Positions 10,333 to 31,867 of a stretch of DNA of 32,000 nucleotides are shown one piece after another. Source of the stretch: Trichodesmium erythraeum IMS101 (GTDB taxonomy: Bacteria; Cyanobacteriota; Cyanobacteriia; Cyanobacteriales; Microcoleaceae); NCBI RefSeq assembly GCF_000014265.1, contig NC_008312.1:3180001-3212000 (forward strand), read 5' to 3'. Each line of letters begins with the position of its first letter. Position 1 is the first letter of the stretch. Both the position numbers and the translations under genes were made by a program. The notes below the pieces were generated by a model. That model was not told the DNA's origin and made no database searches. It saw only the letters and a list, made by a program, of their open reading frames with translations.

Positions 10333-11082
10333 GGTGTTGATGAATTAGGGTATGATTTGAGTTAATAGCGATCGCTGTGAATATCTATAAGGAACTGGAA
10401 CGTCCCAAAATTGATATTTAATGAATCAGTAAGTGAATTGAATGCTTTAACTTCACGTTAGATTTTGAGTAGCAAAGAGTCCTTCGATGTCATCTGGCAA
10501 AATAGTGCTGAAGTCTAGTATTTTCTCCAACTACAATGGTCATATAAGTTTTGCTGATAATTTTATCCCCATCATTAATAGGCCTTGGCATATACTTTCC
10601 ATCCATCTGTAACTTAAAGGAGGACATTCCCATTTTTAACTTGTTCCCATAAAGGATAAAATGCTTTTCCACTAGGATTTCCAATAACCCATTCTAAAAT
10701 TCCTTTTTTAAAATGATTTAGTGCAGTTCATACCCAAATTGGGTTTTTTTGAGCCTAATTATGTCTATAATTTTTCTAGCTCTCCTACTTGAGGAGTTTT
10801 TTGAGGAGAGTAAGAACATGGTAATAGTTTTCCTACTTATTTAATTGAGTTGATAATTGTTTTTATTTAAGCATTTATCTGTGAGTTTATCACTATAACC
10901 TCTATAAGTTTCATCGCAATAAATAAATTGACGACCACAATAAACACAGATGTAGTTTTGCTTTCCTTTTTTTTGGCCATTTTTATTGATGTGAGTTGAT
11001 TGACATTCTGGACATTCTATAATTTTTCTGCCTAAGAGCGCGATCGCTATGAACTCAAATCATACCTTAATTTACCAACGCC
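10333..11082. mobile_element. Internally deleted IS1-family element with about 43-bp terminal inverted repeats
   Basis: Left end 10333-10375 is ggtgttgatgaattagggtatgatttgagttaatagcgatcgc. The reverse complement of right end 11040-11082 is ggcgttggtaaattaaggtatgatttgagttcatagcgatcgc. They match at 38/43 overall and 31/33 over the inner part. Inside, on the minus strand, are an InsA-like zinc-finger N-terminus (IIECPECQSTHINKNGQKKGKQNYICVYCGRQF) and an InsB-like C-terminus (TYMTIVVGENTRLQHYFARWHRRTLCYSKS...KHSIHLLIHYI), with the middle missing. Confidence 0.7.
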
Positions 11083-14857: not shown

Positions 14858-15511
14858 ATGAATTTTAAATTCATCAAACAATGGTTGACTATTGGTTGCT
14901 TTAGTTTAGCTGTAATTTCTGGCCTAACTCAGCATACTCAGGCACAACAAAGTCGACGTAGGGCTAGTTTTTTCTGTGGTACTGAAGGGGGTCAACCTGC
15001 TACTATTGCGCGACTGCCAGAGAAGGATGGCAATACTCCTTTAAAAACTTTAATTATTTGGAAAATTGATGACTTTAAAGGGTATCCTCCTGAAAAACGT
15101 TGTCGTCTCGTTTCTCAGAAATTTCAAGATAATCAAAATACGGGTCATTTGAACTATATTGTTTCTGGTCAAGCAAATGGTTGGCCAGTATTATGTGCTT
15201 CTAAACAGAACTATGATTATATTGTAGATTGTCCTGACCCTAATGTTTTGATGACTCTTTTACCGGGGGATGACTCCCAAGACATGATTAGAAAACTGGA
15301 AAAACTAAACAGGGGTCGTTCAAATGCACCCCTGGAACATTTACCAGATGAAGTATTAGTTCGTAGTGGAAATTTAGACTCAATTAATATTAATAAATGG
15401 ATAAATAATTCTCCACTACATGGGAATAACTCCCAAGAAATTATCAGAAAAGTTGAAGAACCAAAGACTGATATTGAAGAATCTAATCAATGTATTTGGG
15501 GATGCGAATAA
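14858..15511 (+). CDS. COP23 (circadian oscillating protein 23) domain protein, secreted
   Basis: There is a signal peptide, MNFKFIKQWLTIGCFSLAVISGLTQHTQA. The COP23-type pattern follows: FFCGTEGGQPATIA...LIIWKIDDFKGYPPEKRCRLVSQKFQ...LNYIVSGQANGWPVLC...CPDPNVLMTL. Confidence 0.8.
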   Translation: MNFKFIKQWLTIGCFSLAVISGLTQHTQAQQSRRRASFFCGTEGGQPATIARLPEKDGNTPLKTLIIWKIDDFKGYPPEKRCRLVSQKFQDNQNTGHLNYIVSGQANGWPVLCASKQNYDYIVDCPDPNVLMTLLPGDDSQDMIRKLEKLNRGRSNAPLEHLPDEVLVRSGNLDSININKWINNSPLHGNNSQEIIRKVEEPKTDIEESNQCIWGCE

Positions 15512-15520
15512 TTATTCTTT

Positions 15521-15808
15521 GTAGTTGGGCTTTAGCTCCTCAAATATTAACTTTTGAACTGAAGCTTAACTACAAGCCTAATGCTCTGAAAAATTCTCCA
15601 AATATTTGGCAATAGGAATATTTATTTGAATAAGTTAATCAATTTTTTTAGTAGGGCTTTAGCTCCTCAAATCTTAACTTTTGAACTGAGGCTCAACTAC
15701 AAGGCAAATGTTCGGAAAAATTCTCCAAATCTTGGGGAATAGGAATGTTTATTTGTATTTGGGCTTCAGCTCTCAAATATTTGCTTTTAGGTTAAAGCTG
15801 AACTACGA
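15521..15808. repeat. About 2.4 tandem copies of a 107-130-bp unit, each starting with a long imperfect hairpin
   Basis: Unit starts are near 15521, 15651 and 15757. An example hairpin pairs gtagttgggctttagctc (15521-15538) with gaactgaagcttaactac (15557-15574). The motif aaaaattctccaaat(a/c)ttgg(c/g)(a/g)aataggaat(a/g)tttatttg is shared by units 1 and 2. Confidence 0.8.
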
Positions 15809-15810
15809 AT

Positions 15811-16662
15811 TTGATTAAAGGAGTCTACCATTTAATGAAACTCAATTTTTCATTCAAAAGAATTAGCATCTTGAGTCTATTTCTGACAAGTTTATTTTGG
15901 TCTGATTTAGAGCTAGCGATCGCTCCTTCTCATCATCCTATTTTACCTGAAAAAATAGTTGAAAAACAACTTTGCCAAACTGCTGCTAAATTTACTGTGA
16001 AAATTATTTCTGGTGAGGGTTGGGGAACGGGAATTTTAGTGCAGAAACAGGAGAATATTTATACTCTGGTAACTAATGATCATGTTTTGAGAGATAAGAC
16101 TGAAAATTTTGTTGTGGAAACTGAGGATGGTGAAAAACATCAAGCAAGTTTATTGGTGAGTTTTCATCATAATCAAACCACAGGTAATGATTTGGCTATT
16201 TTACAGTTTAATAGTCTGAAAAATTATCCAATTGTTAGTTTGGCAAAGTGGCAAAAGGAAGAACGAGTAATGGCTGTTGGTTTTCCTATAGATGTTAATG
16301 TTACTAGTTCTAAAAAGGGCGGTTTAACTTGTACTAAATTGGGTGAAGTTTCTAAATATTTGGCAAGACCAATGCGATCGGGATATCAGATTGGATATAA
16401 GTTAACTGTTTTTAATGGTATGAGTGGGGGACCTTTATTAAATAATCATGGTCAGTTAGTCGGAATTATTGGTATGGGGGAGCCAATTATTTTTGTTAAT
16501 CCTGATATTTATCTATATAAAGATGGTTCCCGGGTGACTGAATCTTTGGATATTTCTTCCGAGAAGGCTTTGGATTTTTTATCTAGTTTAAGTTGGGCAA
16601 TTCCATCAGAAACTTTGGTTTATTTATCTCCTTCTGGATTAGGTTTGAATTTTGAATTTTGA
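15811..16662 (+). CDS. Secreted trypsin-like (S1/chymotrypsin-fold) serine peptidase
   Basis: The catalytic triad contexts are TNDHVL (His), GNDLAILQF (Asp) and GMSGGPLLNNHGQLVGI (Ser). There is an N-terminal signal-like segment. The track start is a TTG. The ATG at 15835 (MKLNFSF...), preceded by aaaggag, is the more likely start. Confidence 0.85.
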   Translation: MIKGVYHLMKLNFSFKRISILSLFLTSLFWSDLELAIAPSHHPILPEKIVEKQLCQTAAKFTVKIISGEGWGTGILVQKQENIYTLVTNDHVLRDKTENFVVETEDGEKHQASLLVSFHHNQTTGNDLAILQFNSLKNYPIVSLAKWQKEERVMAVGFPIDVNVTSSKKGGLTCTKLGEVSKYLARPMRSGYQIGYKLTVFNGMSGGPLLNNHGQLVGIIGMGEPIIFVNPDIYLYKDGSRVTESLDISSEKALDFLSSLSWAIPSETLVYLSPSGLGLNFEF

Positions 16663-16754
16663 ATATGGTTTTTACGATTTACTCTGTACATTATTTGCCC
16701 AAAATGTGCTATGTATAATTGTAATTCCTCTGGTGGTAGTAATATATAATTCTT

Positions 16755-18029
16755 ATGAAAAAAGCAATCTTAAAATGTTTCAAGAAAAAAATAATTATAA
16801 AGAAATATATCATCAGACTAACAATTTTACTAACAATATTAACTTTGGTTAGTTGCAATAAAATACCTTTTCTGAACAAACAACCACCACAACCAGAACA
16901 ACCAACTTTTATTGCCAGAAAATCAGGTACTCCTGTAAATCCTTTTGCTTTAAATAGATTAGCAAAAGAAACGGTAGTAGAAATTGTGAGTGAGGGTTAT
17001 TTGACTGGAGGTAATAAATATCTTCCTAAAGGTTCGGGAGTAATTATTGGTAGAAAAGATTCTGTTTATTATGTTCTAACTGCTGATCATATTTCTGATA
17101 TTGACGATGGACTTTCGGTGTTTATTCGCAGTGAAAAACCAGGGAAATTAGGAGAAGTATTACCTCTAAAATTTATTAGGCGTTACCCACGGGAAGATTT
17201 GGCTGTGGTGACGTTTCTTAGTTTTACTAATTATAAGGTGGCGGAGGTTGGAGAGGCGAGTCAGCTAGATGATGATAATCAAGTTTATGTGGCGGGCTGG
17301 CCTGGGGCTGAGAATAGGCAGGGTTTTCAGTTTACTCCTGCTAAGGTGACCAACCCACAAGTGGGAGATAATTTGACTTATCAACCTACTGAACCTAGTG
17401 AGAGTTTGTATAAGGGGATGAGTGGGGGAGCGGTTTTGAATGAGGCGGGGCAGTTGGTGGGTATTCATGTGGGCTTGACGAAGGTTGGTGGAGATGGGAA
17501 GGGGGTTTTGATTTCGACTTTTTTGCAGATGGTGCCACCAGAGGTTGAGGAGGTGTTGGGGAGTTCAACTCCCGATGTCTTGTCTTCTTCGAGTAGTGAC
17601 AATGAGGAAGTTAAATTACGACGACAACTGGAGGAGGAGCGGCGGAAGCGTGAAGAGGCAGAAGGGCTAGTGGAAAAGCTAGAGGCTAAACTTTTCAAAG
17701 AGACAGAAGGGCGAAAACAAGAGGGAGAAAAAAAAATAAAAAATGATAAAAAAAGGTTTTGCCTCTGGGGTTATGTTTGGTGGTCGTGGTTCTTGAAGTT
17801 GGGTGTGTGGGGGCTGTATGTCGCTGTCGTCGTCGTAGCGTTTCGTTGGGTCGTAGGGGTGTTTGAGGGGATTTTGGTCTCCCGGGAGCAGCGTTGGCCT
17901 TGGAGAGGGAGGCTTTGGTGGCTGATAGAGTTTGCTTGCTGGGGGGTGGGAGGAATTTGGGGAATGGTGGGAGGAATTGGCATGATTTTTGTGTGGGATT
18001 GGGCTGATGGGTTGGGGGCGTGTAATTAG
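16755..18029 (+). CDS. Trypsin-like serine peptidase lipoprotein with coiled-coil and Trp-rich hydrophobic C-terminal tail (3' extent uncertain)
   Basis: There is a lipobox-like LTLVSC. The triad contexts are TADHI (His), REDLAVVTF (Asp) and GMSGGAVLNEAGQLVGIHVG (Ser). A charged coiled-coil follows (EEVKLRRQLEEERRKREEAEGLVEKLEAKL), then a 91-aa tail with 14 Trp. That tail lies in A-depleted DNA where stop codons are intrinsically rare. Confidence 0.75.
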   Translation: MKKAILKCFKKKIIIKKYIIRLTILLTILTLVSCNKIPFLNKQPPQPEQPTFIARKSGTPVNPFALNRLAKETVVEIVSEGYLTGGNKYLPKGSGVIIGRKDSVYYVLTADHISDIDDGLSVFIRSEKPGKLGEVLPLKFIRRYPREDLAVVTFLSFTNYKVAEVGEASQLDDDNQVYVAGWPGAENRQGFQFTPAKVTNPQVGDNLTYQPTEPSESLYKGMSGGAVLNEAGQLVGIHVGLTKVGGDGKGVLISTFLQMVPPEVEEVLGSSTPDVLSSSSSDNEEVKLRRQLEEERRKREEAEGLVEKLEAKLFKETEGRKQEGEKKIKNDKKRFCLWGYVWWSWFLKLGVWGLYVAVVVVAFRWVVGVFEGILVSREQRWPWRGRLWWLIEFACWGVGGIWGMVGGIGMIFVWDWADGLGACN

Positions 18030-18121
18030 AAGTCTAACACTAAGTCCTTTCAGCCGTCAAGAAAAAAGTTTGCCAAGTTAATTCGATACCTGGCACCCCG
18101 CCGCAAAAATTCTTAGTATTT

Positions 18122-18273
18122 GTAGGTTGGGTTGAGGTCACGAAACCCAACTTATCCCCCGCTGATGTGTTAGGTTTCACTTCCTTGTTGAGGAGCCTAC
18201 TTTAATATTGCCAAAACCAATCTTTCTTAACCATGCTAATGTGTTTGGTTTCACTTCATTCTACCCAACCTAC
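18122..18273. repeat. Three copies of a hairpin-forming repeat family (GTAGGTTGGGTT...AACCCAAC) in mixed orientation
   Basis: Copy A at 18122-18151 has an 8-bp stem, gttgggtt/aacccaac. Copies B (18166-18200) and C (18240-18273) are in the opposite orientation. B and C share the 23-nt direct repeat GCTRATGTGTTWGGTTTCACTTC (18161-18183 and 18235-18257). Confidence 0.65.
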
Positions 18274-18349
18274 TTTTGTAAAATTTGAATATAATTGTAA
18301 TTGTTAAACATTCCCAAAAGCCATCCTCTCTAACCAACCTAAACCACCA

Positions 18350-19639
18350 ATGACCACAAACCAACTTCTAGACAACCGATACCAAATTATCAACAAATTG
18401 CACGAGACAAATTTAAGCACCACATTCCAGGGAAAAGACATCAAAACTGCCACCCATCGCCCATGTCTCATCAAACAACTCAAAACCGATCCCCAAAACA
18501 CCAAACTACAAAAAGAACAAGAAGAAAGATTTCAACAAGAAGCAAAAATCTTAGAAAAATTAGGCAAACACCCGCAAATACCAGATTCATACGCCTATTT
18601 TTCTGTAAATAATCAATTTTATTTAGTTCAAGAATGGATAGCAGGATGTAACCTAGAAGAAAAACTTCAACAACAGGGCAAACTAACAGAAACAGAGGTC
18701 AAAAATATACTAATAAAATTATTGCCAGTCCTAGAATTTATTCATCACCAACACAAAATAATTCACCGAGATATTAAACCAACTAATATTATGCTGAACT
18801 CCGAAAACTTACCCATATTAATTGACTTCGGCATAGTCAAAAAAATAGTCACTTCAATAAACCCTCAAATCCCAAATACCTTAAAAATAGGAACTCCCGA
18901 CTTTGTCTCTCCCGAACAAATATTAGGAGAACCAACCTTTGCCAGCGATATATATAGTTTAGGCACTACAGCAATTTATCTCTTAACAGGAGAAATACCC
19001 AAAAATAAATATTCCTGGCATTCAAACCTACCAAATATTAGCCCAGAATTTGCCAATATTTTAGATAAATCTATAGAAGAAAAATTGAGCGATCGCTATC
19101 AAAGCGCCAAAGAAATGTTAACGGCAATAAAAAGCAGCAAAACATCTTATTCGAGCTCCAAAACCAAACTGCAAATTACCAAAACCCCATCATCTCTACA
19201 ACCAACTCAAAAAATTTCCCCCGTAACTTTAACAAGCCCAAAAAATAATCAGTGGTTAAAAATCGGAATAGTCGCCATTATCGTAGGAATTATCAGCACA
19301 GGAACATACATTTTTTACAATAACAAAAACCAAACCCAGTCAACCTTATATGCAGCAACTGAAAAAGCAGAAAAAGTAATTACAAAAGCCAAAAAAGCCA
19401 CAGAAAAAAACGAATTAGAAATTGCCAGAAACCAATTAGAAATCGCAATTCAAGAATTAGAAAATATTCCCCAAAACCCAGAAATTAATAATCAAATTCA
19501 AACCAAAAAATCAGAGTATCTAAAAACAATGAACCAAATAAATCTGGCATTAAAAAAACAACCCTGTTATGAACTATTGTGGCAAAAAGATAATTGCCAA
19601 AAATACCCAATTAAATTAGACAATAGTAGTTTTGATTGA
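18350..19639 (+). CDS. Membrane-anchored Hanks-type Ser/Thr protein kinase (glycine-rich loop degenerate)
   Basis: HRDIKPTNIML, DFG and GTPDFVSPEQ are present, with candidate Lys (CLIKQL) and Glu (QQEAKILEKL). A TM segment WLKIGIVAIIVGIISTGTYIFY is followed by about 110 aa of helical C-terminal region. The expected GxGxxG position reads HETNLS. Confidence 0.9.
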   Translation: MTTNQLLDNRYQIINKLHETNLSTTFQGKDIKTATHRPCLIKQLKTDPQNTKLQKEQEERFQQEAKILEKLGKHPQIPDSYAYFSVNNQFYLVQEWIAGCNLEEKLQQQGKLTETEVKNILIKLLPVLEFIHHQHKIIHRDIKPTNIMLNSENLPILIDFGIVKKIVTSINPQIPNTLKIGTPDFVSPEQILGEPTFASDIYSLGTTAIYLLTGEIPKNKYSWHSNLPNISPEFANILDKSIEEKLSDRYQSAKEMLTAIKSSKTSYSSSKTKLQITKTPSSLQPTQKISPVTLTSPKNNQWLKIGIVAIIVGIISTGTYIFYNNKNQTQSTLYAATEKAEKVITKAKKATEKNELEIARNQLEIAIQELENIPQNPEINNQIQTKKSEYLKTMNQINLALKKQPCYELLWQKDNCQKYPIKLDNSSFD

Positions 19640-19868
19640 AGATAAAATTGAGAACTAAAGATACAAAAATTGACAACCTTGATCAGATATTTTCAGGGAT
19701 AAATTAAACAAGTAAAATAAACAAGCAAAACCTTATCCTTACAGTCTAACATTTAGAACTTGCAAATTATCAGCACCCGTTCTACAACACTCTCAGCAAA
19801 ATATTAGAATGAGGAAATATTAGACGAGCGATCGCCTTTATAAGCCCTATTACCACAAACAAAACATT

Positions 19869-19896
19869 GTAGGGACAGTCATAAGAATGTCCCTAC
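19869..19896. terminator. Perfect 9-bp stem hairpin between the convergent kinase and S9 peptidase genes
   Basis: gtagggaca (19869-19877) and tgtccctac (19888-19896) flank a 10-nt loop. There is no clear U-tract, so a terminator function is only inferred from position. Confidence 0.4.
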
Positions 19897-19941
19897 TATA
19901 GCCTACCCAAATAAAAGATATCTACTCAACTAAAAATGATA

Positions 19942-21834
19942 CTACTTAACCACACCAGAGTGCCCATCTATAGAACCCGCCGGTTCAAATTTTCCACCTA
20001 AGTATTTTGCCAAAAATTCCTCAGCGATCGCATAAAAATGTAAACGGTTTTCTGGGCGTGCAAAACCATGACCTTCATCTTCATATAAAACATATTCTAC
20101 AGGCTTACCAGCATCCTTCATAGCCTGAACAATTTGTTCACTTTCTGACTCCTTCACCCGTGGGTCATTTGCTCCTTGGCCAATTAACAAAGGTTTCTGA
20201 ATTTTATCCACAAAAAACAGAGGCGATCGCGACCTTAAAAACTCTGGCTCTGTTTCAATATCTCCCATACGATGACTAAAAACCCTCTTCAGAGGTTTCC
20301 AATAAGGTGGAATAGTTTCCATTAAAGTGATCAAATTACTAGGTCCGACAATATCAACACCAGCAGCAAAGACTTCCGGAGTAAAAGTTAACCCTACTAA
20401 AGTTGAATAACCACCATAAGAACCACCCATAATAGCAATTTCATCCTTGTTAGCGATACCCTTTTCAACTAGCCAGTTAACTCCATCAATGAGATCATCA
20501 TGCATTTTCGCTCCCCACTCCCGGTTACCAGCATTGAGAAAGTCTTTACCATAACCAGTTGAACCGCGGAAATTAACTTGCAACACCACATAACCCCGGT
20601 TAGCCAACCATTGAGCTTGCCCTTTATAACCCCAAGTATCCCGAGCCCAAGGTCCTCCATGAACTAAAAGCACTGCTGCAGTTGGAGTAGAAACCCCCAC
20701 AGGTTTAGTCAAATATCCATGAATAGTTAAACCATCCCTAGCAACATAGGAAATAGGTTCCATAGGAGCCAACTGTAAACCTTCTAGTTTTGGTTGGTTC
20801 GTAAACAAAAAAGTTGTAGTTTTAGCAGTACGGTCGTAGGCATAATAATAAACTGGTCCGTCATCAGTGAAATAAGCTACTAACCAGTTAAGATCCTGAA
20901 GAGTCCGGTCTACGATGCGAAACTCCCCTTTATGAGCTGCTTTCAGAAATTCAAAATCTGCAGTAATGCTATCGTCCAGAACTTGCCATTCTAGCTTATC
21001 TTTGTAGAAACCTACTGCTTGAATAGTACGAGTTGTAGGATGAGTTATGATGCCACTAATATCATATTGGGAGTCTTCAGCAATTACTTTTTCTTGACCA
21101 TCTCTAAGGTCTAGAGCAAGTAGACGTTGAGCATTAGCATCATGGTTACCCGATATATAGAGAATATTCCCATCATCGGAGAAGAGAACCGGACCACCTT
21201 GTTCATCAGGTCCCCAATGACGCAAAGTTTCCCATGGTTTTTCTGTAGTTTCCCGATAAAATAAATTAGAACCTCGATCCTCAGTGCTGGCGATCGCTGC
21301 CCGGACTTGAAATTGAGCATCAGCAGTCCAACCAACAATATTACCTGGGTTCTGGGTATCAAATTCTACTGCACCATTATTAAGATCAATGCGGTAAACA
21401 TCAAAACTTTGGGGGTTTTTTAGATTCATTCCCACCAATATTTGGTCGGGAAAACAATGATCTAAATTTACTATTTGCGCTTTAACTCCTTGGAATGGGG
21501 TCAGGTCGCGCACTATGTTTGATTGAATATTTACTTGATAAAGATGAAAGTTTTCGTCACCACCAGCATCTTGGAGGTATATCAGTTGGTCTGGCTTGTA
21601 AGTCCAAAGATACATACGAATGCCTCGTTTTTGGTCAGCAGTAACTTGGCGATCGTCTTGTTTACCAATAGTTTGTACCCATACTTGCAAAACGTTTTTA
21701 TCATCTGGGGCGATGTAGGCAAGATATTTTCCATCGGGGGAAATTTTTGGTTTAGTACGTTCAGGGTTCCCAAATAAAATTTCACGAGGAATGAGAGGTG
21801 TGAGTTGAGCCGTAGTTTTTTCTTTGCTGGTCAT
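19942..21834 (-). CDS. S9 family serine peptidase (prolyl oligopeptidase / dipeptidyl aminopeptidase-like)
   Basis: The 630-aa ORF has an N-terminal beta-propeller-like region and a C-terminal alpha/beta hydrolase domain. The triad contexts are GGSYGGY (Ser), GANDPRV (Asp) and DEGHGF (His). Confidence 0.9.
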   Translation of the reverse strand: MTSKEKTTAQLTPLIPREILFGNPERTKPKISPDGKYLAYIAPDDKNVLQVWVQTIGKQDDRQVTADQKRGIRMYLWTYKPDQLIYLQDAGGDENFHLYQVNIQSNIVRDLTPFQGVKAQIVNLDHCFPDQILVGMNLKNPQSFDVYRIDLNNGAVEFDTQNPGNIVGWTADAQFQVRAAIASTEDRGSNLFYRETTEKPWETLRHWGPDEQGGPVLFSDDGNILYISGNHDANAQRLLALDLRDGQEKVIAEDSQYDISGIITHPTTRTIQAVGFYKDKLEWQVLDDSITADFEFLKAAHKGEFRIVDRTLQDLNWLVAYFTDDGPVYYYAYDRTAKTTTFLFTNQPKLEGLQLAPMEPISYVARDGLTIHGYLTKPVGVSTPTAAVLLVHGGPWARDTWGYKGQAQWLANRGYVVLQVNFRGSTGYGKDFLNAGNREWGAKMHDDLIDGVNWLVEKGIANKDEIAIMGGSYGGYSTLVGLTFTPEVFAAGVDIVGPSNLITLMETIPPYWKPLKRVFSHRMGDIETEPEFLRSRSPLFFVDKIQKPLLIGQGANDPRVKESESEQIVQAMKDAGKPVEYVLYEDEGHGFARPENRLHFYAIAEEFLAKYLGGKFEPAGSIDGHSGVVK

Positions 21835-24997: not shown

Positions 24998-26956
24998 CTA
25001 CCTAAGTTGAAAATTACTAGTAGCTAAAACTGGACTATTATCTAAATTAGCAAACTCAGCTCCAATACCAAAACCATCTTCACTGCCGTTAGTATTATAA
25101 TATAACGCTCCGCTAACAGAGTTGTAAACAATAGCAGCTTCAGCAGTTTCGGCATCACTTTCACTAGAGACAGTAGCAAAATCATCTTCAGATAAACCAG
25201 CATCAGCAGAACTATCTAGAGCAGTAAAAGTATCCAAGTCAAGCAAGATTCTATCTTGACCAATATTAAAATCAGTAATTCTATCTGTACCTATATCCTG
25301 AGAATTAAATTCTTTATTGGTGTTAAAGATAAATCTATCTATACTGGCTCCACCAGTTAATTCATCGTCTCCAGGACCACCATTCAGGCGATCGCGACCT
25401 TGACCACCATTAAGAGTATCATCACCCCTTCCTCCAAGCAATATATCAAACCCTGGACGACCTTGTAAAAAATCATCACCATCCTGACCCAAAAGAGTAT
25501 CATTACCCCTGGCGCCTATCAGAGTGTCATTACCATCATCACCAAGAATTCGGTCATTGCCTGCCAGTCCATTTAGGCGATCATCTCCAGCAAAACCCCT
25601 TACCTTATCGTCAGCAAAACCTGCTTGAATATTGTTATCCCGTTTATCTCCATTGAAAACCACATTCTCAACAGGAATTACAGTATTCATATTTTCTAAG
25701 ATAACCTGTCCGCGCAACTCACCACTCTGATTATTTTGTGTATGCAGGTTAATATAAACTCCTCCTGACTCTACTGCAGCCACTTCAGTCTCATCCAAAG
25801 TAAAGTTACCAGAGAAGAAACCAGAGTTACCATCAGTTTCAAATACAGTTAAGTTGCGTAAAAATGCACCATTCTCGCCAATTTCTCCCAAATAAAGTTG
25901 AGCCGAGCTTTGAGAATTTCCCTCTGAGTCCTGCTCTGGTCCGACATTAAATAAGTCACTCGACAGCCCAAAAAAACGTCCAAATATATTAAAATTATTG
26001 CCCAAAAGTTCACTAGAAAAGACTCCTCCAGCCTGGGTATTTGAATCTAAGTCAACGACTTGAGATTCTAACATTGGTAAAAATCCTACTAGAGCATCGT
26101 TCCCTGGAGCTGTCTCGTTGACAAGAACTTGTGCGCGTAACTCACCACCCAGATTATTTTCTGTGTGCAAATTCACATAAAAGTTCCCTGACTTTGCAGC
26201 TACGACCTCATCATCACTCAAAGAAAAGGATCCCAAAAATCCACCTGAACCGTCACCATTATCAGTGACATTGAAATTACGGGCAATTCCACCAGTAGAA
26301 TTAGCTAATCCCTGATGCAAGTGAACAGAACTTTCAGCATTTCCCTCTAAGTCTGTACCTCCCACCGAAAATAAATCGCTTGATAAACCTGAAAAAGTTC
26401 CTTGTATTATCAGTGTATTATCATCCAGAGTCGCATTTATTATTCCTTCAGCGGGACTATCTGCTACTGGGGGTACTTCAAAAGATTCTGACATGGGCAA
26501 CCCAAGGCCAAATGATATTTGTAAACCATCTAAAAAATTTACCTGTCCCCGTAGTTCTCCACTTGGGTTATTTTCTGTGTGGAGATTTATATAAAACGCG
26601 TCTGCTTTTGCTGTTTCTAGCTCTGGATCTGTGAGGGTAAAAGCTCCATTAAATCTACCAGAACGATCATCAATTTCAAATCTATTTAAGTTGCGGACAA
26701 TACCTCCATTCTGACCTATTTCACCCTGATGAAGATGAATGGGGCTTTCAATATTTTCCTCTGAGTCTACTCCTCCTAAAGGAAGTAGAGGACTTGATAG
26801 CTCCTTAAATTTGCCATCTATTAATAATATATTATCAAGTAATAATGCAGTAAAACCCCCTACAGCTGGACTATCTTCTACAGGTGGAACTTCCTGTTGT
26901 TCTGAGATAAATAAAGAAGGTCCAAAAAAAAATTTGTCAAATGAATAACGAGCCAT
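24998..26956 (-). CDS. Three-CHRD-domain protein with C-terminal RTX (hemolysin-type) calcium-binding repeats
   Basis: Three internal repeats of about 130 aa each end in (Y/F)(I/V)NLHT(E/Q)NNxxGELR(G/A)QV, the CHRD signature. They are followed by GDDGNDTLIGARGNDTLLGQDGDDFLQG...GGRGDDTLNGGQGRDRLNGGPGDDELTGG. There is no N-terminal signal peptide, which fits C-terminal type I secretion. Confidence 0.9.
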   Translation of the reverse strand: MARYSFDKFFFGPSLFISEQQEVPPVEDSPAVGGFTALLLDNILLIDGKFKELSSPLLPLGGVDSEENIESPIHLHQGEIGQNGGIVRNLNRFEIDDRSGRFNGAFTLTDPELETAKADAFYINLHTENNPSGELRGQVNFLDGLQISFGLGLPMSESFEVPPVADSPAEGIINATLDDNTLIIQGTFSGLSSDLFSVGGTDLEGNAESSVHLHQGLANSTGGIARNFNVTDNGDGSGGFLGSFSLSDDEVVAAKSGNFYVNLHTENNLGGELRAQVLVNETAPGNDALVGFLPMLESQVVDLDSNTQAGGVFSSELLGNNFNIFGRFFGLSSDLFNVGPEQDSEGNSQSSAQLYLGEIGENGAFLRNLTVFETDGNSGFFSGNFTLDETEVAAVESGGVYINLHTQNNQSGELRGQVILENMNTVIPVENVVFNGDKRDNNIQAGFADDKVRGFAGDDRLNGLAGNDRILGDDGNDTLIGARGNDTLLGQDGDDFLQGRPGFDILLGGRGDDTLNGGQGRDRLNGGPGDDELTGGASIDRFIFNTNKEFNSQDIGTDRITDFNIGQDRILLDLDTFTALDSSADAGLSEDDFATVSSESDAETAEAAIVYNSVSGALYYNTNGSEDGFGIGAEFANLDNSPVLATSNFQLR

Positions 26957-29479: not shown

Positions 29480-30550
29480 ATGAAGCGCTCTCTATTTTTA
29501 TTTATAAGTTTAGCTGTTTTAAGTTTAACATCCTGTAGCGCTGCCAAGGAAGTTCAGGAATTAATTCAGGAATTAATTGATCCCACGCCACCACAGACAT
29601 CGACCACATCTCCTGTTAAACAAAAAGAACAAAGAAAGTTATTTCCAATTCAGCAAAAAGGAAAATATGGTTATATCAATAAAATGGGCAAAATATTGAT
29701 TCCACCAAAATTTGAACAGGTGAAAAATTTCTCAGAGGGATTAGCAGCAGTAAAAATTGGAGAAAAATGGGGTTATATTAATGAAATGGGAAAAATAGTC
29801 ATCAGCCCAAAATTTGATTCTGCTTTACGTTTTTCCCAAGGGTTAGCACCAGTGAAAAAAGTTGCTCAAAGATGGAGCTATATTAACCAGAATGGAGAAA
29901 TAGTAATTCAACCAGAGTTTGAAGATGCAGTCTATTTTTCCGAAGGGTTAGCACGAGTTACAATTGATGGTAACTGGGGTTATGTTGATAGAATGGGCAA
30001 AATAGTAATCAAATCAAAATATGGAGGACAAACTGGGCGGGGTTTTTTTGTTGAGGGATTAGCTGCTGTGAGGGTCGGGGCTGGCTATAAATATGGATAT
30101 ATAGATCAGGCTGGAGAAATGGTCATTACAGAACAATATAATTTTGCTGGAGACTTTGTTAATGGTTTAGCGAGGGTTCAAATTTTTGATGTTTGGGGGT
30201 ATATTGATAAAACTGGTAGAGAAGTCATTAGACCAAACTTTGAATTTAGTCAAGATTTTTCTGAGGGTTTAGCAGCAGTTAAAATTAAAGATAAGTATGG
30301 CTATATTGATGTTTCCGGAAAAAGAGTTATTCAACCGAAGTATGATTATGCTGGCAGTTTTTCTGAAGGTCTAGCAGAAGTAAGGATAGATGACAAATAT
30401 GGCTACATTAATGCTAAGAATGAGATCATTATTGAGCCGGAGTTTGATAATGCTTTTGCTTTTTCTAATGGTATTGCAGAAGTGTGGGTAGATGACAAAA
30501 AGGGTTACATAGATAAAATTGGTAGGTTTGTCTGGAATTTAAGTAATTGA
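29480..30550 (+). CDS. WG-repeat (KWG-type) lipoprotein
   Basis: There is a lipoprotein signal, LAVLSLTSC. Nine repeats of the pattern (K/W)(W/Y)GYI(N/D)xxGxxVIxPxFDxAxxFSEGLAxV follow. Confidence 0.9.
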   Translation: MKRSLFLFISLAVLSLTSCSAAKEVQELIQELIDPTPPQTSTTSPVKQKEQRKLFPIQQKGKYGYINKMGKILIPPKFEQVKNFSEGLAAVKIGEKWGYINEMGKIVISPKFDSALRFSQGLAPVKKVAQRWSYINQNGEIVIQPEFEDAVYFSEGLARVTIDGNWGYVDRMGKIVIKSKYGGQTGRGFFVEGLAAVRVGAGYKYGYIDQAGEMVITEQYNFAGDFVNGLARVQIFDVWGYIDKTGREVIRPNFEFSQDFSEGLAAVKIKDKYGYIDVSGKRVIQPKYDYAGSFSEGLAEVRIDDKYGYINAKNEIIIEPEFDNAFAFSNGIAEVWVDDKKGYIDKIGRFVWNLSN

Positions 30551-30892: not shown

Positions 30893-31867
30893 ATGTCCCA
30901 GACTTTCAACCAAGGATACGCTGTTGTTATCGGAGTAGGTGATGATTTGCCGATCACAATTGATGATGCTACTGCCATTGCCAATGTATTGGGTGATTTA
31001 TCTCGTTGCGCCTATCCTACTGATCAAGTGCGTTTACTAACAGGTGAAAAAGCAAACCGTGCCAATGTTCTATCTGCTTTGAGCTGGCTGGCTGAGACCA
31101 CGGGAAAAGATGACACGGCGATCGTTTATTTTTCTGGTCATGGAATTGAAAAACCAGATTATTATTTGATGCCTTATGGTTATAATTTAGAAAATTTGGA
31201 GGGTACAGCTATTCGAGGCGAAACTTTTACGGAGTGTCTGAGAGCTATTAAAACTAAAAAATTACTGGTACTGTTAGACTGCTGCCATGCTGGTGGACAG
31301 GCAGACCCTAAGGGAATTATAAAATCACCTCTACCTCCATCGGCGATCGCTCAGTTGGGGAGCAGTAGTGGTAGGGTTATACTTGCTTCTTCGCGAAAAG
31401 ATGAACTATCTTGGACGGGAAAGCCATACAGTGTTTTTACTGTAGCATTGTTGGAGGCTTTGGCTGGTTATGGCATATTTGAACAAGACGGCTATGCTCG
31501 CGTTTTGGATCTTGCTATGTGGGTCGGACGCAAAGTCCCAGAACGTACAGGGGATGAACAGCACCCTATCATCAAGGTCTCTAATTTAGAGGATAATTTT
31601 GCTTTGGCTTGGTATGCTGGGGGGGAGAAAAGTGTGCGCCCATTGCCAAAATGGGAAACTAATATTCCATCTATTACACCAGGGTTGGATATTGAACAGG
31701 TGGCTACCTGGCGACGGATGTTGGCTAACTATCGTGAAAATCTTCTGTTAATTGAAGAACGCATGAGTGAATTTGTTGAATTTACTGATGTTCCACTAAC
31801 ACTTTTGAAAAATAAACGTCGGATAGAGGCGGAAATAACTAAGTTGGAAAAAAAATTGGGGGGTTAA
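30893..31867 (+). CDS. Caspase-like (peptidase C14, orthocaspase-type) protein with C-terminal helical extension
   Basis: The p20-like core is YAVVIGVG...IVYFSGHG (catalytic His context) and LLVLLDCCHAGG (catalytic Cys context). The last about 75 aa (QVATWRRMLANYRENLLLIEERMSEF...RRIEAEITKLEKKL) look helical or coiled. Confidence 0.85.
   Translation: MSQTFNQGYAVVIGVGDDLPITIDDATAIANVLGDLSRCAYPTDQVRLLTGEKANRANVLSALSWLAETTGKDDTAIVYFSGHGIEKPDYYLMPYGYNLENLEGTAIRGETFTECLRAIKTKKLLVLLDCCHAGGQADPKGIIKSPLPPSAIAQLGSSSGRVILASSRKDELSWTGKPYSVFTVALLEALAGYGIFEQDGYARVLDLAMWVGRKVPERTGDEQHPIIKVSNLEDNFALAWYAGGEKSVRPLPKWETNIPSITPGLDIEQVATWRRMLANYRENLLLIEERMSEFVEFTDVPLTLLKNKRRIEAEITKLEKKLGG

Follow-up and report, generated by a model that had tools for sequence, protein, structure and literature searches.

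Among described protein kinases, the WNG family is, by analogy, the nearest functional precedent for a protein that has no glycine-rich (Gly) loop and has kept its catalytic motifs; WNG1 is an active kinase without this loop (PMC6442604). The bacterial EssB/YukC, CP1, GLW and DYD pseudokinases are membrane-anchored proteins of Hanks fold with degraded nucleotide-binding elements, and some bacterial pseudokinase families occur in cyanobacteria (PMC12599244). In the present work, a serine/threonine (Ser/Thr) kinase gene of Trichodesmium erythraeum IMS101 is described, located at positions 18350-19639 of the + strand in a stretch of 32,000 nucleotides (nt), the whole of which is called the window below. 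Its product, identified by exact identity look-up as ABG51292.1 / WP_011611663.1, has no glycine at the GxGxxG positions, and the coding strand is A+C-rich and G-poor. The gene is read here, with a probability of about 0.55, as coding for an intact, conserved, atypical Hanks-type Ser/Thr kinase, the composition of which is a long-standing steady state with RNA selection as its likeliest cause.

The PknB/StkP/Stk1 kinases resemble ABG51292.1 in fold, in the catalytic Lys, Glu, HRD, Asn, DFG and SPE elements, and in architecture, the kinase domain being followed by a single putative membrane span and then by a further domain. StkP and PknB are the solved structures nearest by sequence (E about 1e-23), and the best Foldseek match of the AlphaFold2 (AF2) model (mean predicted local distance difference test score, pLDDT, 79.6) is PknB 5u94, with a target-normalised template modelling (TM) score of 0.82. 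The differences relate to the loop, which is devoid of glycine in ABG51292.1, to the lack of PASTA repeats, and to a C-terminal domain of about 110 residues with three helices and two cysteines, without a match in the Pfam scan. The PASTA kinase model NF033483 gave 159 bits against a cut-off of 450, and only residues 4-297 were matched. The nearest relatives outside the clade (36-46% identity) are canonical cyanobacterial kinases with LGSGGFGETFLAED, such as the IMS/DUF4101- or TPR-containing ones of Nostocales. They share RYQII...TF..D, C39-x-x-K42-Q-L-K, QIP and YLVQE(W/Y)I with the ABG51292.1 family; in contrast to it, they keep GxGGFG, and their A+C fraction at four-fold degenerate sites (four-fold A+C) is mostly near that of their neighbours.

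Like the WNG kinases, ABG51292.1 belongs to a conserved clade in which the Gly-rich loop is absent while VAIK, HRD and DFG are retained. However, the WNG kinases are eukaryotic, secreted proteins of a coccidian clade and of unrelated origin, and they have lost beta1 together with the loop and carry a helical extension instead, whereas the hairpin of ABG51292.1 is predicted to be intact and its closest relatives are canonical cyanobacterial kinases. The pseudokinases named above are defined by the loss of at least one of three catalytic motifs (VAIK Lys, HRD Asp, DFG Asp; PMC12599244, PMC4718504). ABG51292.1 has lost none of them; all three residues are present and invariant, only the Gly loop being altered, which speaks against the possibility, raised by the first-pass annotation, that the protein is becoming a pseudokinase. 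The PADLOC profiles of the antiphage kinase PD-T4-6 matched strongly, the best of them with 273 bits, 35 PADLOC families matching and a curated cut-off being absent. These are broad kinase-domain profiles in our judgement; a defence role is not read from the match, and the protease/COP23 context of the gene is not judged a defence island.

The kinase gene comprises the following elements (window positions):

18350-19639, + strand: Ser/Thr kinase coding sequence, 429 amino acids (aa), stop codon included in the coordinates; Pfam Pkinase, E=2.8e-37; four-fold A+C 0.83
18398-18433, + strand: residues 17-28, LHETNLSTTFQG, glycine-free replacement of GxGxxG at the beta1-turn-beta2 position, from the StkP and canonical alignments and the AF2 model
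18473-18475, + strand: Lys42, the beta3 'VAIK' lysine in the context CLIKQLK, invariant in alignments A1, A2 and A3
18539-18541, + strand: Glu64, the alphaC glutamate, invariant in the alignments
18764-18787, + strand: catalytic loop HRDIKPTN (H139-N146), with R140, D141, K143 and N146 invariant
18824-18832, + strand: DFG motif (D159-G161), invariant
18908-18916, + strand: SPE motif, the APE equivalent (S187-E189), with E189 invariant
19232-19303, + strand: hydrophobic stretch WLKIGIVAIIVGIISTGTYIFY, residues about 295-318, a putative single transmembrane segment, read from the translation; low pLDDT
19307-19609, + strand: C-terminal domain with three predicted helices (320-402) followed by P-C-Y-E-L-L-W...C-Q-x-Y-P; AF2 pLDDT 84-93

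Against the Hanks superfamily profile PF00069 the protein scores 129 bits (curated cut-off 31.7, E=2.8e-37), and the AF2 model predicts the bilobal kinase fold. Among 51 aligned family and canonical sequences, K42, E64, R140, D141, K143, N146, D159-G161, E189 and D200 are invariant, and H139 is conserved in at least 90%. The beta3 Lys, the alphaC Glu, the HRD Asp, the catalytic Asn, the DFG Asp and the APE Glu of the Hanks scheme are all present, and the GxGxxG of subdomain I is missing, H18-E-T20-N-L-S23 standing in place of the canonical G-x-G-G-F-G. Both halves of this picture, the retained catalytic residues (K42, E64, HRD, DFG and SPE) and the lack of glycine at the three loop positions, had been noticed at the first reading and are borne out. 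The open reading frame (ORF) is intact, and the exact protein was read on 13 contigs; its 90%-identity cluster holds 103 member sequences from isolates and metagenomes, and two other assemblies carry the same 20-kb neighbourhood. An overlapping antisense gene was rejected, the largest and only - strand ORF of at least 60 aa inside the kinase interval being one of 66 aa.

The AF2 model shows a low-confidence linker between the kinase domain and the putative membrane span. The PknB-like kinase domain is presumably cytoplasmic, with one putative span, and the three-helix, two-cysteine domain that follows would face the cell envelope. C406, C416, Y419 and P420 of this domain are invariant throughout the family in an 11-sequence alignment.

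At the loop, the kinase reads K-L-H-E-T-N-L-S-T-T-F-Q-G-K-D where StkP has Q-I-G-R-G-G-M-A-D-V-Y-L-A-K-D and canonical cyanobacterial homologues have L-G-S-G-G-F-G-E-T-F-L-A-E-D; LHETNLSTTFQG is aligned with IGRGGMADVYLA of StkP and with LGSGGFGETFLA of the nearest canonical cyanobacterial kinases. PknB has a Ser in place of the third 'Gly', to which S23 would correspond. In the AF2 model, a three-residue turn is flanked by strands 11-19 and 23-30 (pLDDT about 90), and the beta1-turn-beta2 hairpin is thereby retained. A search of 5.8 billion proteins returned a compact clade (P0001-P0037, 52-99% identity), whose members belong to Trichodesmium, Okeania and further Microcoleaceae. The family is delimited here by this protein search, a scan of genome contigs having yielded mostly canonical kinases. 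The canonical Gly-rich loop is absent in 20 of 20 aligned clade sequences, the consensus being L-H-E-T-N-L-S-I-T-F-Q-G-K-D; 19 of the 20 cover the whole loop, and P0007, one of them, has the first Gly only. All 30 canonical relatives keep GGFG, 29 of them with the first Gly as well. Within the 11-sequence family alignment, L17, T20, S23, T25, F26, G28 and D30 are invariant.

The Nei-Gojobori ratio of nonsynonymous to synonymous substitution (dN/dS) is 0-0.24 for residues 10-32 in four pairs, a fifth pair being saturated, and 0.23-0.34 for the kinase domain, 0.25-0.43 for the whole gene and 0.7-2.0 for the linker 261-294; these ratios are inflated to some extent, as the proportion of synonymous differences (pS) is limited by the biased composition. 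The loop value is no higher than that of the domain, and constraint on the altered loop is no weaker than elsewhere in the domain. The low pS (about 0.42) was rejected as a sign of silent-site constraint, as it equals the saturation expectation at the biased composition. A loop common to all 20 clade sequences aligned and held by purifying selection is at odds with the proposal that the glycines were lost recently or are still being lost. The GxGxxG turn would have been replaced by L-H-E-T-N-L-S-x-T-F-Q-G in an ancestor of the Trichodesmium/Okeania group, and the glycine-free turn would have been kept by purifying selection ever since.

The drift proposal was open to refutation by relatives of ordinary composition that already have the loop, and Okeania relatives of near-ordinary composition do have it. 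Okeania SIO3I5 (locus L006) has KLHETDLSITFQG with four-fold A+C of 0.47-0.52, and Okeania SIO2C9 (L005) has KLYETHVSITFQG with 0.60, the Okeania background being 0.48 (standard deviation, sd, 0.08). The derivation of the loop by G->A and T->C changes holds in part: Gly->Asn (GGY to AAY) and Gly->Ser (GGY to AGY) fit G->A, but Gly->His, Gly->Thr and Leu->Gln do not fit either change, and Ala->Gly opposes the bias. The composition bias may have contributed to the loop change historically but does not account for the motif. As a separate observation, the kinase relative in L006 is split at 10560-10700 by an insert of about 100 nt with short repeats of the GGAAGACAA type, between PEQKK and TYASDIYSLG; this may reflect an insertion, pseudogene formation or a fault in the assembly.

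Because the hairpin and every catalytic residue are kept, the kinase is predicted from sequence and model to still bind ATP and phosphorylate, which is the most likely state of the protein. Conserved Thr/Ser side chains would then replace the backbone contacts of the glycines. A conserved protein of kinase fold that acts as a nucleotide-binding switch or as a scaffold, with a signalling role free of phosphotransfer maintained by purifying selection, is possible but doubtful. The relatively high dN/dS agrees with it, the Gly-rich loop positions the ATP phosphates and canonical kinases depend on it for catalysis (PMC6442604), and there are bacterial transmembrane pseudokinases, EssB/YukC among them, that function with a degraded Gly loop (PMC12599244). 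However, EssB/YukC have lost all three catalytic motifs (PMC12599244), whereas K42, E64, HRD, N146 and DFG are invariant here, a conservation that would be puzzling if the protein did not catalyse or at least bind Mg-ATP, and the beta hairpin is retained in the model.

The second peculiarity of the gene is its base composition. The counts per 60 nt reported earlier are exact (A26 C16 T12 G6 for 18361-18420; A27 C15 T13 G5 for 19201-19260; G16 C4 for 16081-16140, in a protease gene upstream). Over the whole ORF the coding strand contains A.446, C.218, G.116 and T.220; third codon positions contain A.49, C.235, T.214 and G.058 (GC3 skew -0.60, AT3 skew +0.39), and four-fold sites contain A.48, C.36, T.12 and G.04. 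The four-fold A+C of 0.83 compares with a mean of 0.42 (sd 0.07, range 0.32-0.53) in the 16 other window genes (z=5.7), and the four-fold base counts of the two sets differ with chi2=107 and p=4e-23. Third positions had been called almost always A or C; the bias is indeed strong, but the wording is overstated, the share being 73% overall and 83% at four-fold sites. Codons common elsewhere are scarce in the kinase (GCT 0/18, GGT 0/12, CCT 1/23, GTT 1/11, CGT 0/6, AAG 0/47), and ATA and CTA are heavily used. The first and second codon positions are shifted as well, with the bias greatest at the third. The protein is Gly-poor, as had been stated (2.8% versus 8.1% in the other genes), and enriched in K, I, Q, T and N; in comparison with canonical homologues, its kinase domain has fewer A, V, G and R and more K, N, I and E.

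The opposite bias ascribed to the two upstream protease genes was confirmed as well, with GC3 skews of +0.60 and +0.64, GCC 1/31, CAC 0/10, AGC 1/49 and GAG at 52%. Their four-fold A+C of 0.32 and 0.34 (four-fold G of protease 2, 0.31) lies within the normal range, at its bottom, so that neither gene counts as an outlier. To speak of a 'mirror image' is fair, but it is the kinase that is truly anomalous. Ordinary window genes have T>A and G>=C at four-fold sites. The bias of the kinase at synonymous sites does run in the G->A / T->C direction relative to the other genes. Since the gain of A at four-fold sites (+0.18) exceeds the loss of G (-0.08), the shift amounts to avoidance of G and T and not to the two transitions alone. 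The T->C log-odds depend on the codon prefix, being +0.1 to +0.8 for TG, TT, AT, GA and AA and +1.2 to +2.5 for the others. A replication-strand effect was rejected: window genes on both strands have the same mildly G+T-leaning coding strand, and because genes of either strand lean alike, the bias is not explained by orientation. A genome-wide codon habit was rejected too, as only family members exceed 0.6 four-fold A+C among 31 Trichodesmium ORFs sampled; the possibility that many genes share the A/C-ending usage thus falls away for this sample.

DNA was recovered for six further members of the family (identity to the window protein):

L091: 98% identity, four-fold A+C 0.81
L087, a Microcoleaceae metagenome-assembled genome (MAG): 75% identity, four-fold A+C 0.73
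L089: 67% identity, four-fold A+C 0.70
L085, a Trichodesmium MAG, non-syntenic locus: 62% identity, four-fold A+C 0.72
L088, a Trichodesmium MAG, non-syntenic locus: 62% identity, four-fold A+C 0.77
L086: 58% identity, four-fold A+C 0.61

Neighbouring genes at these loci have four-fold A+C mostly of 0.30-0.55 (full range 0.16-0.65), and the non-syntenic L085 and L088 genes are located between TPR and Hpt genes. The recurrence of the bias in other genomes and at a non-syntenic locus (0.61-0.81) contradicts its description as a patch confined to this part of the + strand. When the main lineages are compared, the four-fold sites of conserved codons have reached 60-88% of the expected saturation mismatch, so the shared bias is not the remnant of one ancestral event. 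Synonymous changes polarised by outgroups are balanced; between L085 and L088, for example, they number four G>A versus two A>G and eleven T>C versus nine C>T. Counts so balanced indicate a steady state and not the drift under way that had been supposed. The A+C bias is a maintained trait of the family. It is not common to all kinases, as most of the 30 canonical cyanobacterial kinases match their neighbours and one Trichodesmium kinase has 0.48; four of the 30 exceed 0.6 (L011, L012, and the Okeania FGE-sulfatase kinases L033 and L037).

The limits of the biased interval are associated with the following elements:

18122-18273, no strand: inverted-repeat element GTAGGTTGGGT...ACCCAACCTAC, an inverted pair in the protease-kinase spacer at the switch from G+T-rich to A+C-rich
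18290-18302, + strand: TATAATTGTAATT, candidate -10 region of the kinase promoter, 48 nt upstream of the kinase start
18309-18349, + strand: G-poor conserved leader CATTCCCAAAAGCC...AAACCACCA, A+C 0.80, G 0.02, where the A+C-rich domain starts
19573-19600, - strand: candidate antisense sigma70-like promoter TTGGCA-16 nt-AATAGT at the 3' end of the kinase coding sequence, from a promoter scan
19866-19899, no strand: hairpin between the convergent kinase and S9 peptidase genes, an inverted pair and possible terminator

In 200-nt segments, + strand A+C is 0.23-0.35 in the protease 2 tail, 0.46-0.47 in the spacer, 0.74 at 18300-18499 and 0.58-0.73 through the kinase, and stays at about 0.62 in the 3' spacer into the convergent gene. 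The leader pattern CATTCCCAAAAGC(G/C)ATC(G)C..CTCTAACCAACC..AAACCACCA-ATG occurs 41-62 nt upstream of the ATG in the window, L087, L085, L088 and L006. In the first four, which carry the strong bias, leader A+C is 0.76-0.80 and leader G 0.02-0.11, and the 60 nt before it have A+C of 0.50-0.60; in L006 A+C steps from 0.35 to 0.61 at the leader. A TATAAT/TGTAAT box lies directly upstream, so the leader start is probably the transcription start. No Shine-Dalgarno sequence was found in the kinase leader 18309-18349. Past the stop codon, L085, L087 and L089 lose the bias over about 100-300 nt, and L086 loses it abruptly. Because it starts at the leader and fades after the stop, the biased interval matches the sense transcript.

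The exact 13-mer TATAATTGTAATT occurs twice in the window, the other copy being at 16714-16726, 29 nt upstream of the protease 2 start; at least two copies arose in 5 of 100 shuffles, and the 13-mer may be a shared promoter or operator. The inverted pair at 18122-18273 spans about 150 nt with internal GTTGGGTT/AACCCAAC hairpins and is without an Rfam match. Its 11-mer was found in 23 of 91 cyanobacterial loci, several times as -/+ pairs 90-220 nt apart (pairs in L005, L033, L048 and L052), and the 11-mer is present in the protease-kinase spacer of four genomes, namely in the window and upstream of the kinase in L086 (9901-9967), L087 (1471-1481) and L089 (2749-3410). It could be a repeat resembling a miniature inverted-repeat transposable element, or a structured spacer element. 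An RNA family scan of 15000-20500 gave nothing credible, the sole match being NEAT1_2 (E=0.58). Long-range pairing of the G+U-rich protease tail with the A+C-rich 5' end of the kinase was rejected, as the two best complementary pairs (I8, I9) are un-nested and form no single helix.

A and C cannot pair with each other, and G pairs most promiscuously. The kinase transcript is for this reason predicted to be almost structure-free: its predicted minimum free energy (MFE) is -0.081 kcal/mol/nt, against -0.155 to -0.233 for 15 other window genes of similar G+C, and in the initiation region (-60 to +40) it is 0.0 kcal/mol against -5.9 to -18.3 for other genes. Family members elsewhere range from -0.083 to -0.113 kcal/mol/nt, with L086 at -0.166. 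In Escherichia coli operons, ORF-wide mRNA structure sets translation efficiency, whole ORFs differing in structure (PMC5318159). The kinase is alike in being predicted far less structured than its neighbours; it differs in that the effect comes from an extreme, persistent composition shift that reshapes the protein, the structure here being a prediction.

A raised third-position A+C over the first 80 codons is seen in many ordinary genes of the sampled genomes. It falls from 0.62 to 0.31, and then lower, in protease 2, from 0.55 to 0.32 in the S9 peptidase gene and from 0.53 to 0.35 in Hpt; genes with such a 5' gradient are protease 2, the S9 peptidase, Hpt of L085 and a ParA-like gene of L086, for example 0.62 versus 0.17-0.39. 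This gradient fits the known relief of mRNA structure at gene starts. The kinase has 0.84 in the first 80 codons and 0.68-0.76 after them, and it looks like a gene-start region extended over the entire gene.

The most likely cause of the bias would be selection on the sense RNA that keeps the transcript pairing-poor. Such a transcript would permit Shine-Dalgarno-independent initiation and ORF-wide tuning of translation or turnover, and weakly constrained residues would be driven by the same pressure to K, N, I and T at the expense of G, A, V and R. In favour of this cause are boundaries that follow the transcript, the leader, the 5' trend common to other genes, and the excess of A gain over G loss, and it is preferred over an antisense mutational asymmetry, though tentatively and at somewhat less than even odds.

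Several points weigh against the reading as a whole. Loss of the Gly loop kills activity in most kinases, and the WNG kinases are compensated by a rebuilt N-lobe, of which ABG51292.1 shows no sign. The whole-gene dN/dS is high for a bacterial enzyme, and for the linker 261-294 it is about 1 or more. With such a composition, low predicted structure arises of itself and is no proof of selection, and effective selection on hundreds of synonymous sites in a regulator of probably low abundance is an unusual demand. In L089, the G-poor stretch reaches about 115 nt upstream of the ATG, beyond a TATAAT-like box. The prefix-dependent T->C shift is predicted neither by RNA selection nor by antisense mutation, and the composition background consists of 31 Trichodesmium ORFs and 103 ORFs from relatives, not of the whole genome. 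Finally, only about 60% of the T. erythraeum IMS101 genome is protein-coding (PMC4143802); we read this as a possible sign of weak selection.

A strand-asymmetric mutational process is a less likely alternative. Dominant antisense transcription or R-loops would expose the - strand, the deamination of which (C->T, A->G) reads as G->A and T->C on the + strand, and the protein composition, possibly with the loop glycines, would follow. Sense transcription usually leaves an excess of G+T on the coding strand, and ordinary genes of the window conform to this, with T>A and G>=C at their four-fold sites. Known parallels are transcription-associated mutational asymmetry and the light-strand genes of vertebrate mitochondria, the latter with an A+C-rich, G-poor coding strand attributed to deamination of the exposed complementary strand; there is a difference in that the present case concerns single genes of a bacterial chromosome, other genes being opposite and mild, and we know of no single-stranded intermediate for the kinase locus. 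Both observed shifts are the transitions expected from - strand deamination, but the A gain above the G loss requires a T->A flux as well, and the T->C shift varies two- to four-fold by codon prefix. The non-coding leader and the 3' flank are biased too, and the inverted-repeat element stands at the composition switch in four genomes; however, the A+C domain begins in four loci at the conserved sense leader, the probable sense start.

The candidate antisense promoter bears on the same alternative. The motif TTGGCA/TTGACA-16-AATAAT/AGTAAT is kept in L087, L089, L085 and L088, and its -10 part is weak in L086; as a - strand sigma70-like motif (TTGGCA-16-AATAAT) it is found in five of six lineages, the weakest -10 coinciding with the weakest bias, in L086. 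Yet it overlaps the coding motifs C-Q-E-Y-P and Y-E-L-L-W, which are conserved, and could thus be there by coincidence. Antisense RNAs are reported for about 15% of the genes of T. erythraeum (PMC4143802), and a mutational cause suits a genome possibly under weak selection. Against this, a co-directional gene starts 9 nt past the stop codon in L087, and the four-fold A+C deviation of the kinase (+0.41) is much larger than the opposite deviations of window genes (about -0.1).

A broader possibility, less probable still, takes up a second, unrelated kinase family of Okeania with a normal GSGGFG loop (MQSGKILRNHYKII...), which has the highest four-fold A+C among 64 Okeania ORFs sampled; these loci were collected for containing kinases, on which the apparent kinase enrichment may depend. 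Members with A-rich, G-poor four-fold sites are:

L033, 10001-11827 and 12198-13802
L037, 222-2330
L047, 1777-2619
L058, 513-2693

The whole-gene four-fold A+C in this family is 0.61-0.73 and G 0.06-0.16; the kinase domain is the most biased part of the four full-length members (0.65-0.83), and the leaders are unbiased, with CTGATAA heptamer repeats. Since a GSGGFG family shows them, silent sites poor in G and rich in A do not depend on the Gly loop being lost, but they do recur in certain kinase genes of the lineage. The two L033 members scanned, both full-length, have Pkinase and FGE-sulfatase domains, the architecture of reported targets of diversity-generating retroelements (DGRs) in T. 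erythraeum (PMC4143802). Particular kinase genes of the Trichodesmium/Okeania group would then be under heritable, gene-targeted, strand-asymmetric mutation, which would steer their proteins, including the replacement of an ATP-loop motif found almost universally elsewhere, without loss of function; the reading covers the Gly-loop-less family and, separately, the Pkinase and FGE-sulfatase genes of DGR-target type. The process could be driven by antisense transcription and R-loops or be linked to a deaminase, bounded by the transcription unit, with the sense strand held G-poor and A(+C)-rich. The kinase of the window was itself rejected as a DGR target: Pfam gave no FGE-sulfatase domain, and no repeat of a kinase part or template-like repeat was found within the 32-kb window. 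The opposite extreme was seen in an HD-domain gene of a Trichodesmium MAG (L057 8435-8992), with four-fold A+C of 0.14 and T of 0.59, which indicates that silent-site strand asymmetry is unusually dispersed in the lineage.

Translational selection at the codon level, in which A/C-ending codons would be the Watson-Crick cognates of U34 and G34 tRNAs and translation would depend on tRNA supply or modification, is quite improbable. NNC codons are raised in all two-fold Y boxes except Cys, A-ending codons make up 75-96% in R-ending boxes, and the bias peaks at third positions. However, the untranslated leader is biased as well, the first and second codon positions are shifted too, and GCT, GGT and CGT, which highly expressed bacterial genes usually prefer, are avoided while ATA and CTA are heavily used. 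A/C-ending codons are as frequent at conserved as at variable residues (0.74 versus 0.74, Fisher p=1.0), and selection for translational accuracy was rejected, as conserved residues are not enriched in them.

The first-pass annotation had raised the possibility of a recent, local G->A / T->C drift of the + strand that erodes GGN and TTY codons, the P-loop glycines being just lost and a pseudokinase or pseudogene forming. The direction of the bias, the low Gly and the Gly-free loop on which it was built are all real, the dN/dS of 0.25-0.43 is on the relaxed side, and Gly->Asn and Gly->Ser in the loop are G->A changes. It is nevertheless very improbable, given a loop that is clade-wide, under purifying selection and shared by near-ordinary-composition Okeania relatives, balanced directional substitutions, a bias present also at a non-syntenic locus and in other genera, invariant catalytic residues, and an intact ORF with the exact protein on 13 contigs. 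Change of a protein driven by composition need not mean decay. Foreign composition, brought by horizontal transfer from a phage, plasmid or other A+C-rich-coding donor, would account for codon usage sharply unlike that of host genes but is scarcely credible, since phages and plasmids offered, at best, generic kinase domains as matches (at most 42% identity and 78% coverage), COP23/protease synteny is conserved across genera, the four-fold sites are largely saturated, so that an inherited signature would have decayed, and HIP1 (GCGATCGC) sites are present in the kinase gene (about 19090) and in the leaders of relatives.

The kinase is the last gene of a conserved cluster and is followed by a convergent gene:

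14858-15511, + strand: COP23-family gene, the first of the cluster; PF14218, E=1.3e-23
15811-16662, + strand: trypsin-like protease 1 with a signal peptide-like N-terminus and GMSGG; Trypsin_2, E=3e-20; GC3 skew +0.60; syntenic in L086 and L089
16755-18029, + strand: trypsin-like protease 2 with a lipobox-like LTLVSC, GMSGG and a W/G/V-rich tail, G+T-rich; Trypsin_2, E=7.7e-17; GC3 skew +0.64; syntenic in L086, L087 and L089
19942-21834, - strand: S9 peptidase gene, convergent, after the kinase

The order COP23-trypsin-trypsin-kinase is shared by the window and L086 (58% identical over the alignment), trypsin-trypsin-kinase is found in L089 and trypsin-kinase in L087. Signal-like N-termini are present in all three proteins encoded upstream of the kinase. 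As the kinase ends a conserved cluster with signal-bearing proteases, the COP23-protease-protease-kinase arrangement suggests an envelope-signalling module. In this context the C-terminal domain would sense, or be processed, and the kinase would phosphorylate cytoplasmic targets.

Further observations concern the cluster and the remainder of the window. In the spacer between COP23 and protease 1 (15509-15806), a unit of about 127 nt is repeated in tandem, with two to three copies that are 86% identical. Protease 2 ends in some 95 codons (17745-18029) for a W/G/V-rich hydrophobic tail, in very G+T-rich DNA (A+C 0.23, G 0.46), where relatives in other genera have a PPC or WD40 domain; the tail could be two membrane helices, or a frame kept open by the scarcity of A. 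Downstream, there are genes for eight WG-beta repeats with internal DNA repeats, for a caspase-domain protein (Peptidase_C14) and for a CHRD and RTX-repeat protein (coordinates listed jointly: 29480-30550, 30893-31867, 24998-26956). A 43-nt inverted repeat (10333-10375 / 11040-11082; 88% complementary), with HIP1 at its inner ends and enclosing 664 nt, lies just upstream of an SNase/Excalibur gene.

ABG51292.1 is assigned to the Hanks superfamily by profile, predicted fold and catalytic residues, yet it is Gly-loop-less. A clade of bacterial kinases is thus described without loop glycines, in which a conserved Thr/Ser-containing turn replaces them. A search of the literature found no described counterpart or explanation for the silent-site asymmetry. 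The gene-specific bias (83% A+C and 4% G at four-fold sites) persists through near-saturating synonymous turnover in several genera and within one transcription unit, and at this locus selection at the RNA level can be tested directly against a mutation bias linked to transcription. A protein should not be called a pseudokinase for loop loss alone. If active, the ABG51292.1 clade would be a bacterial counterpart of the WNG kinases and a natural experiment on the dispensability of the Gly loop.

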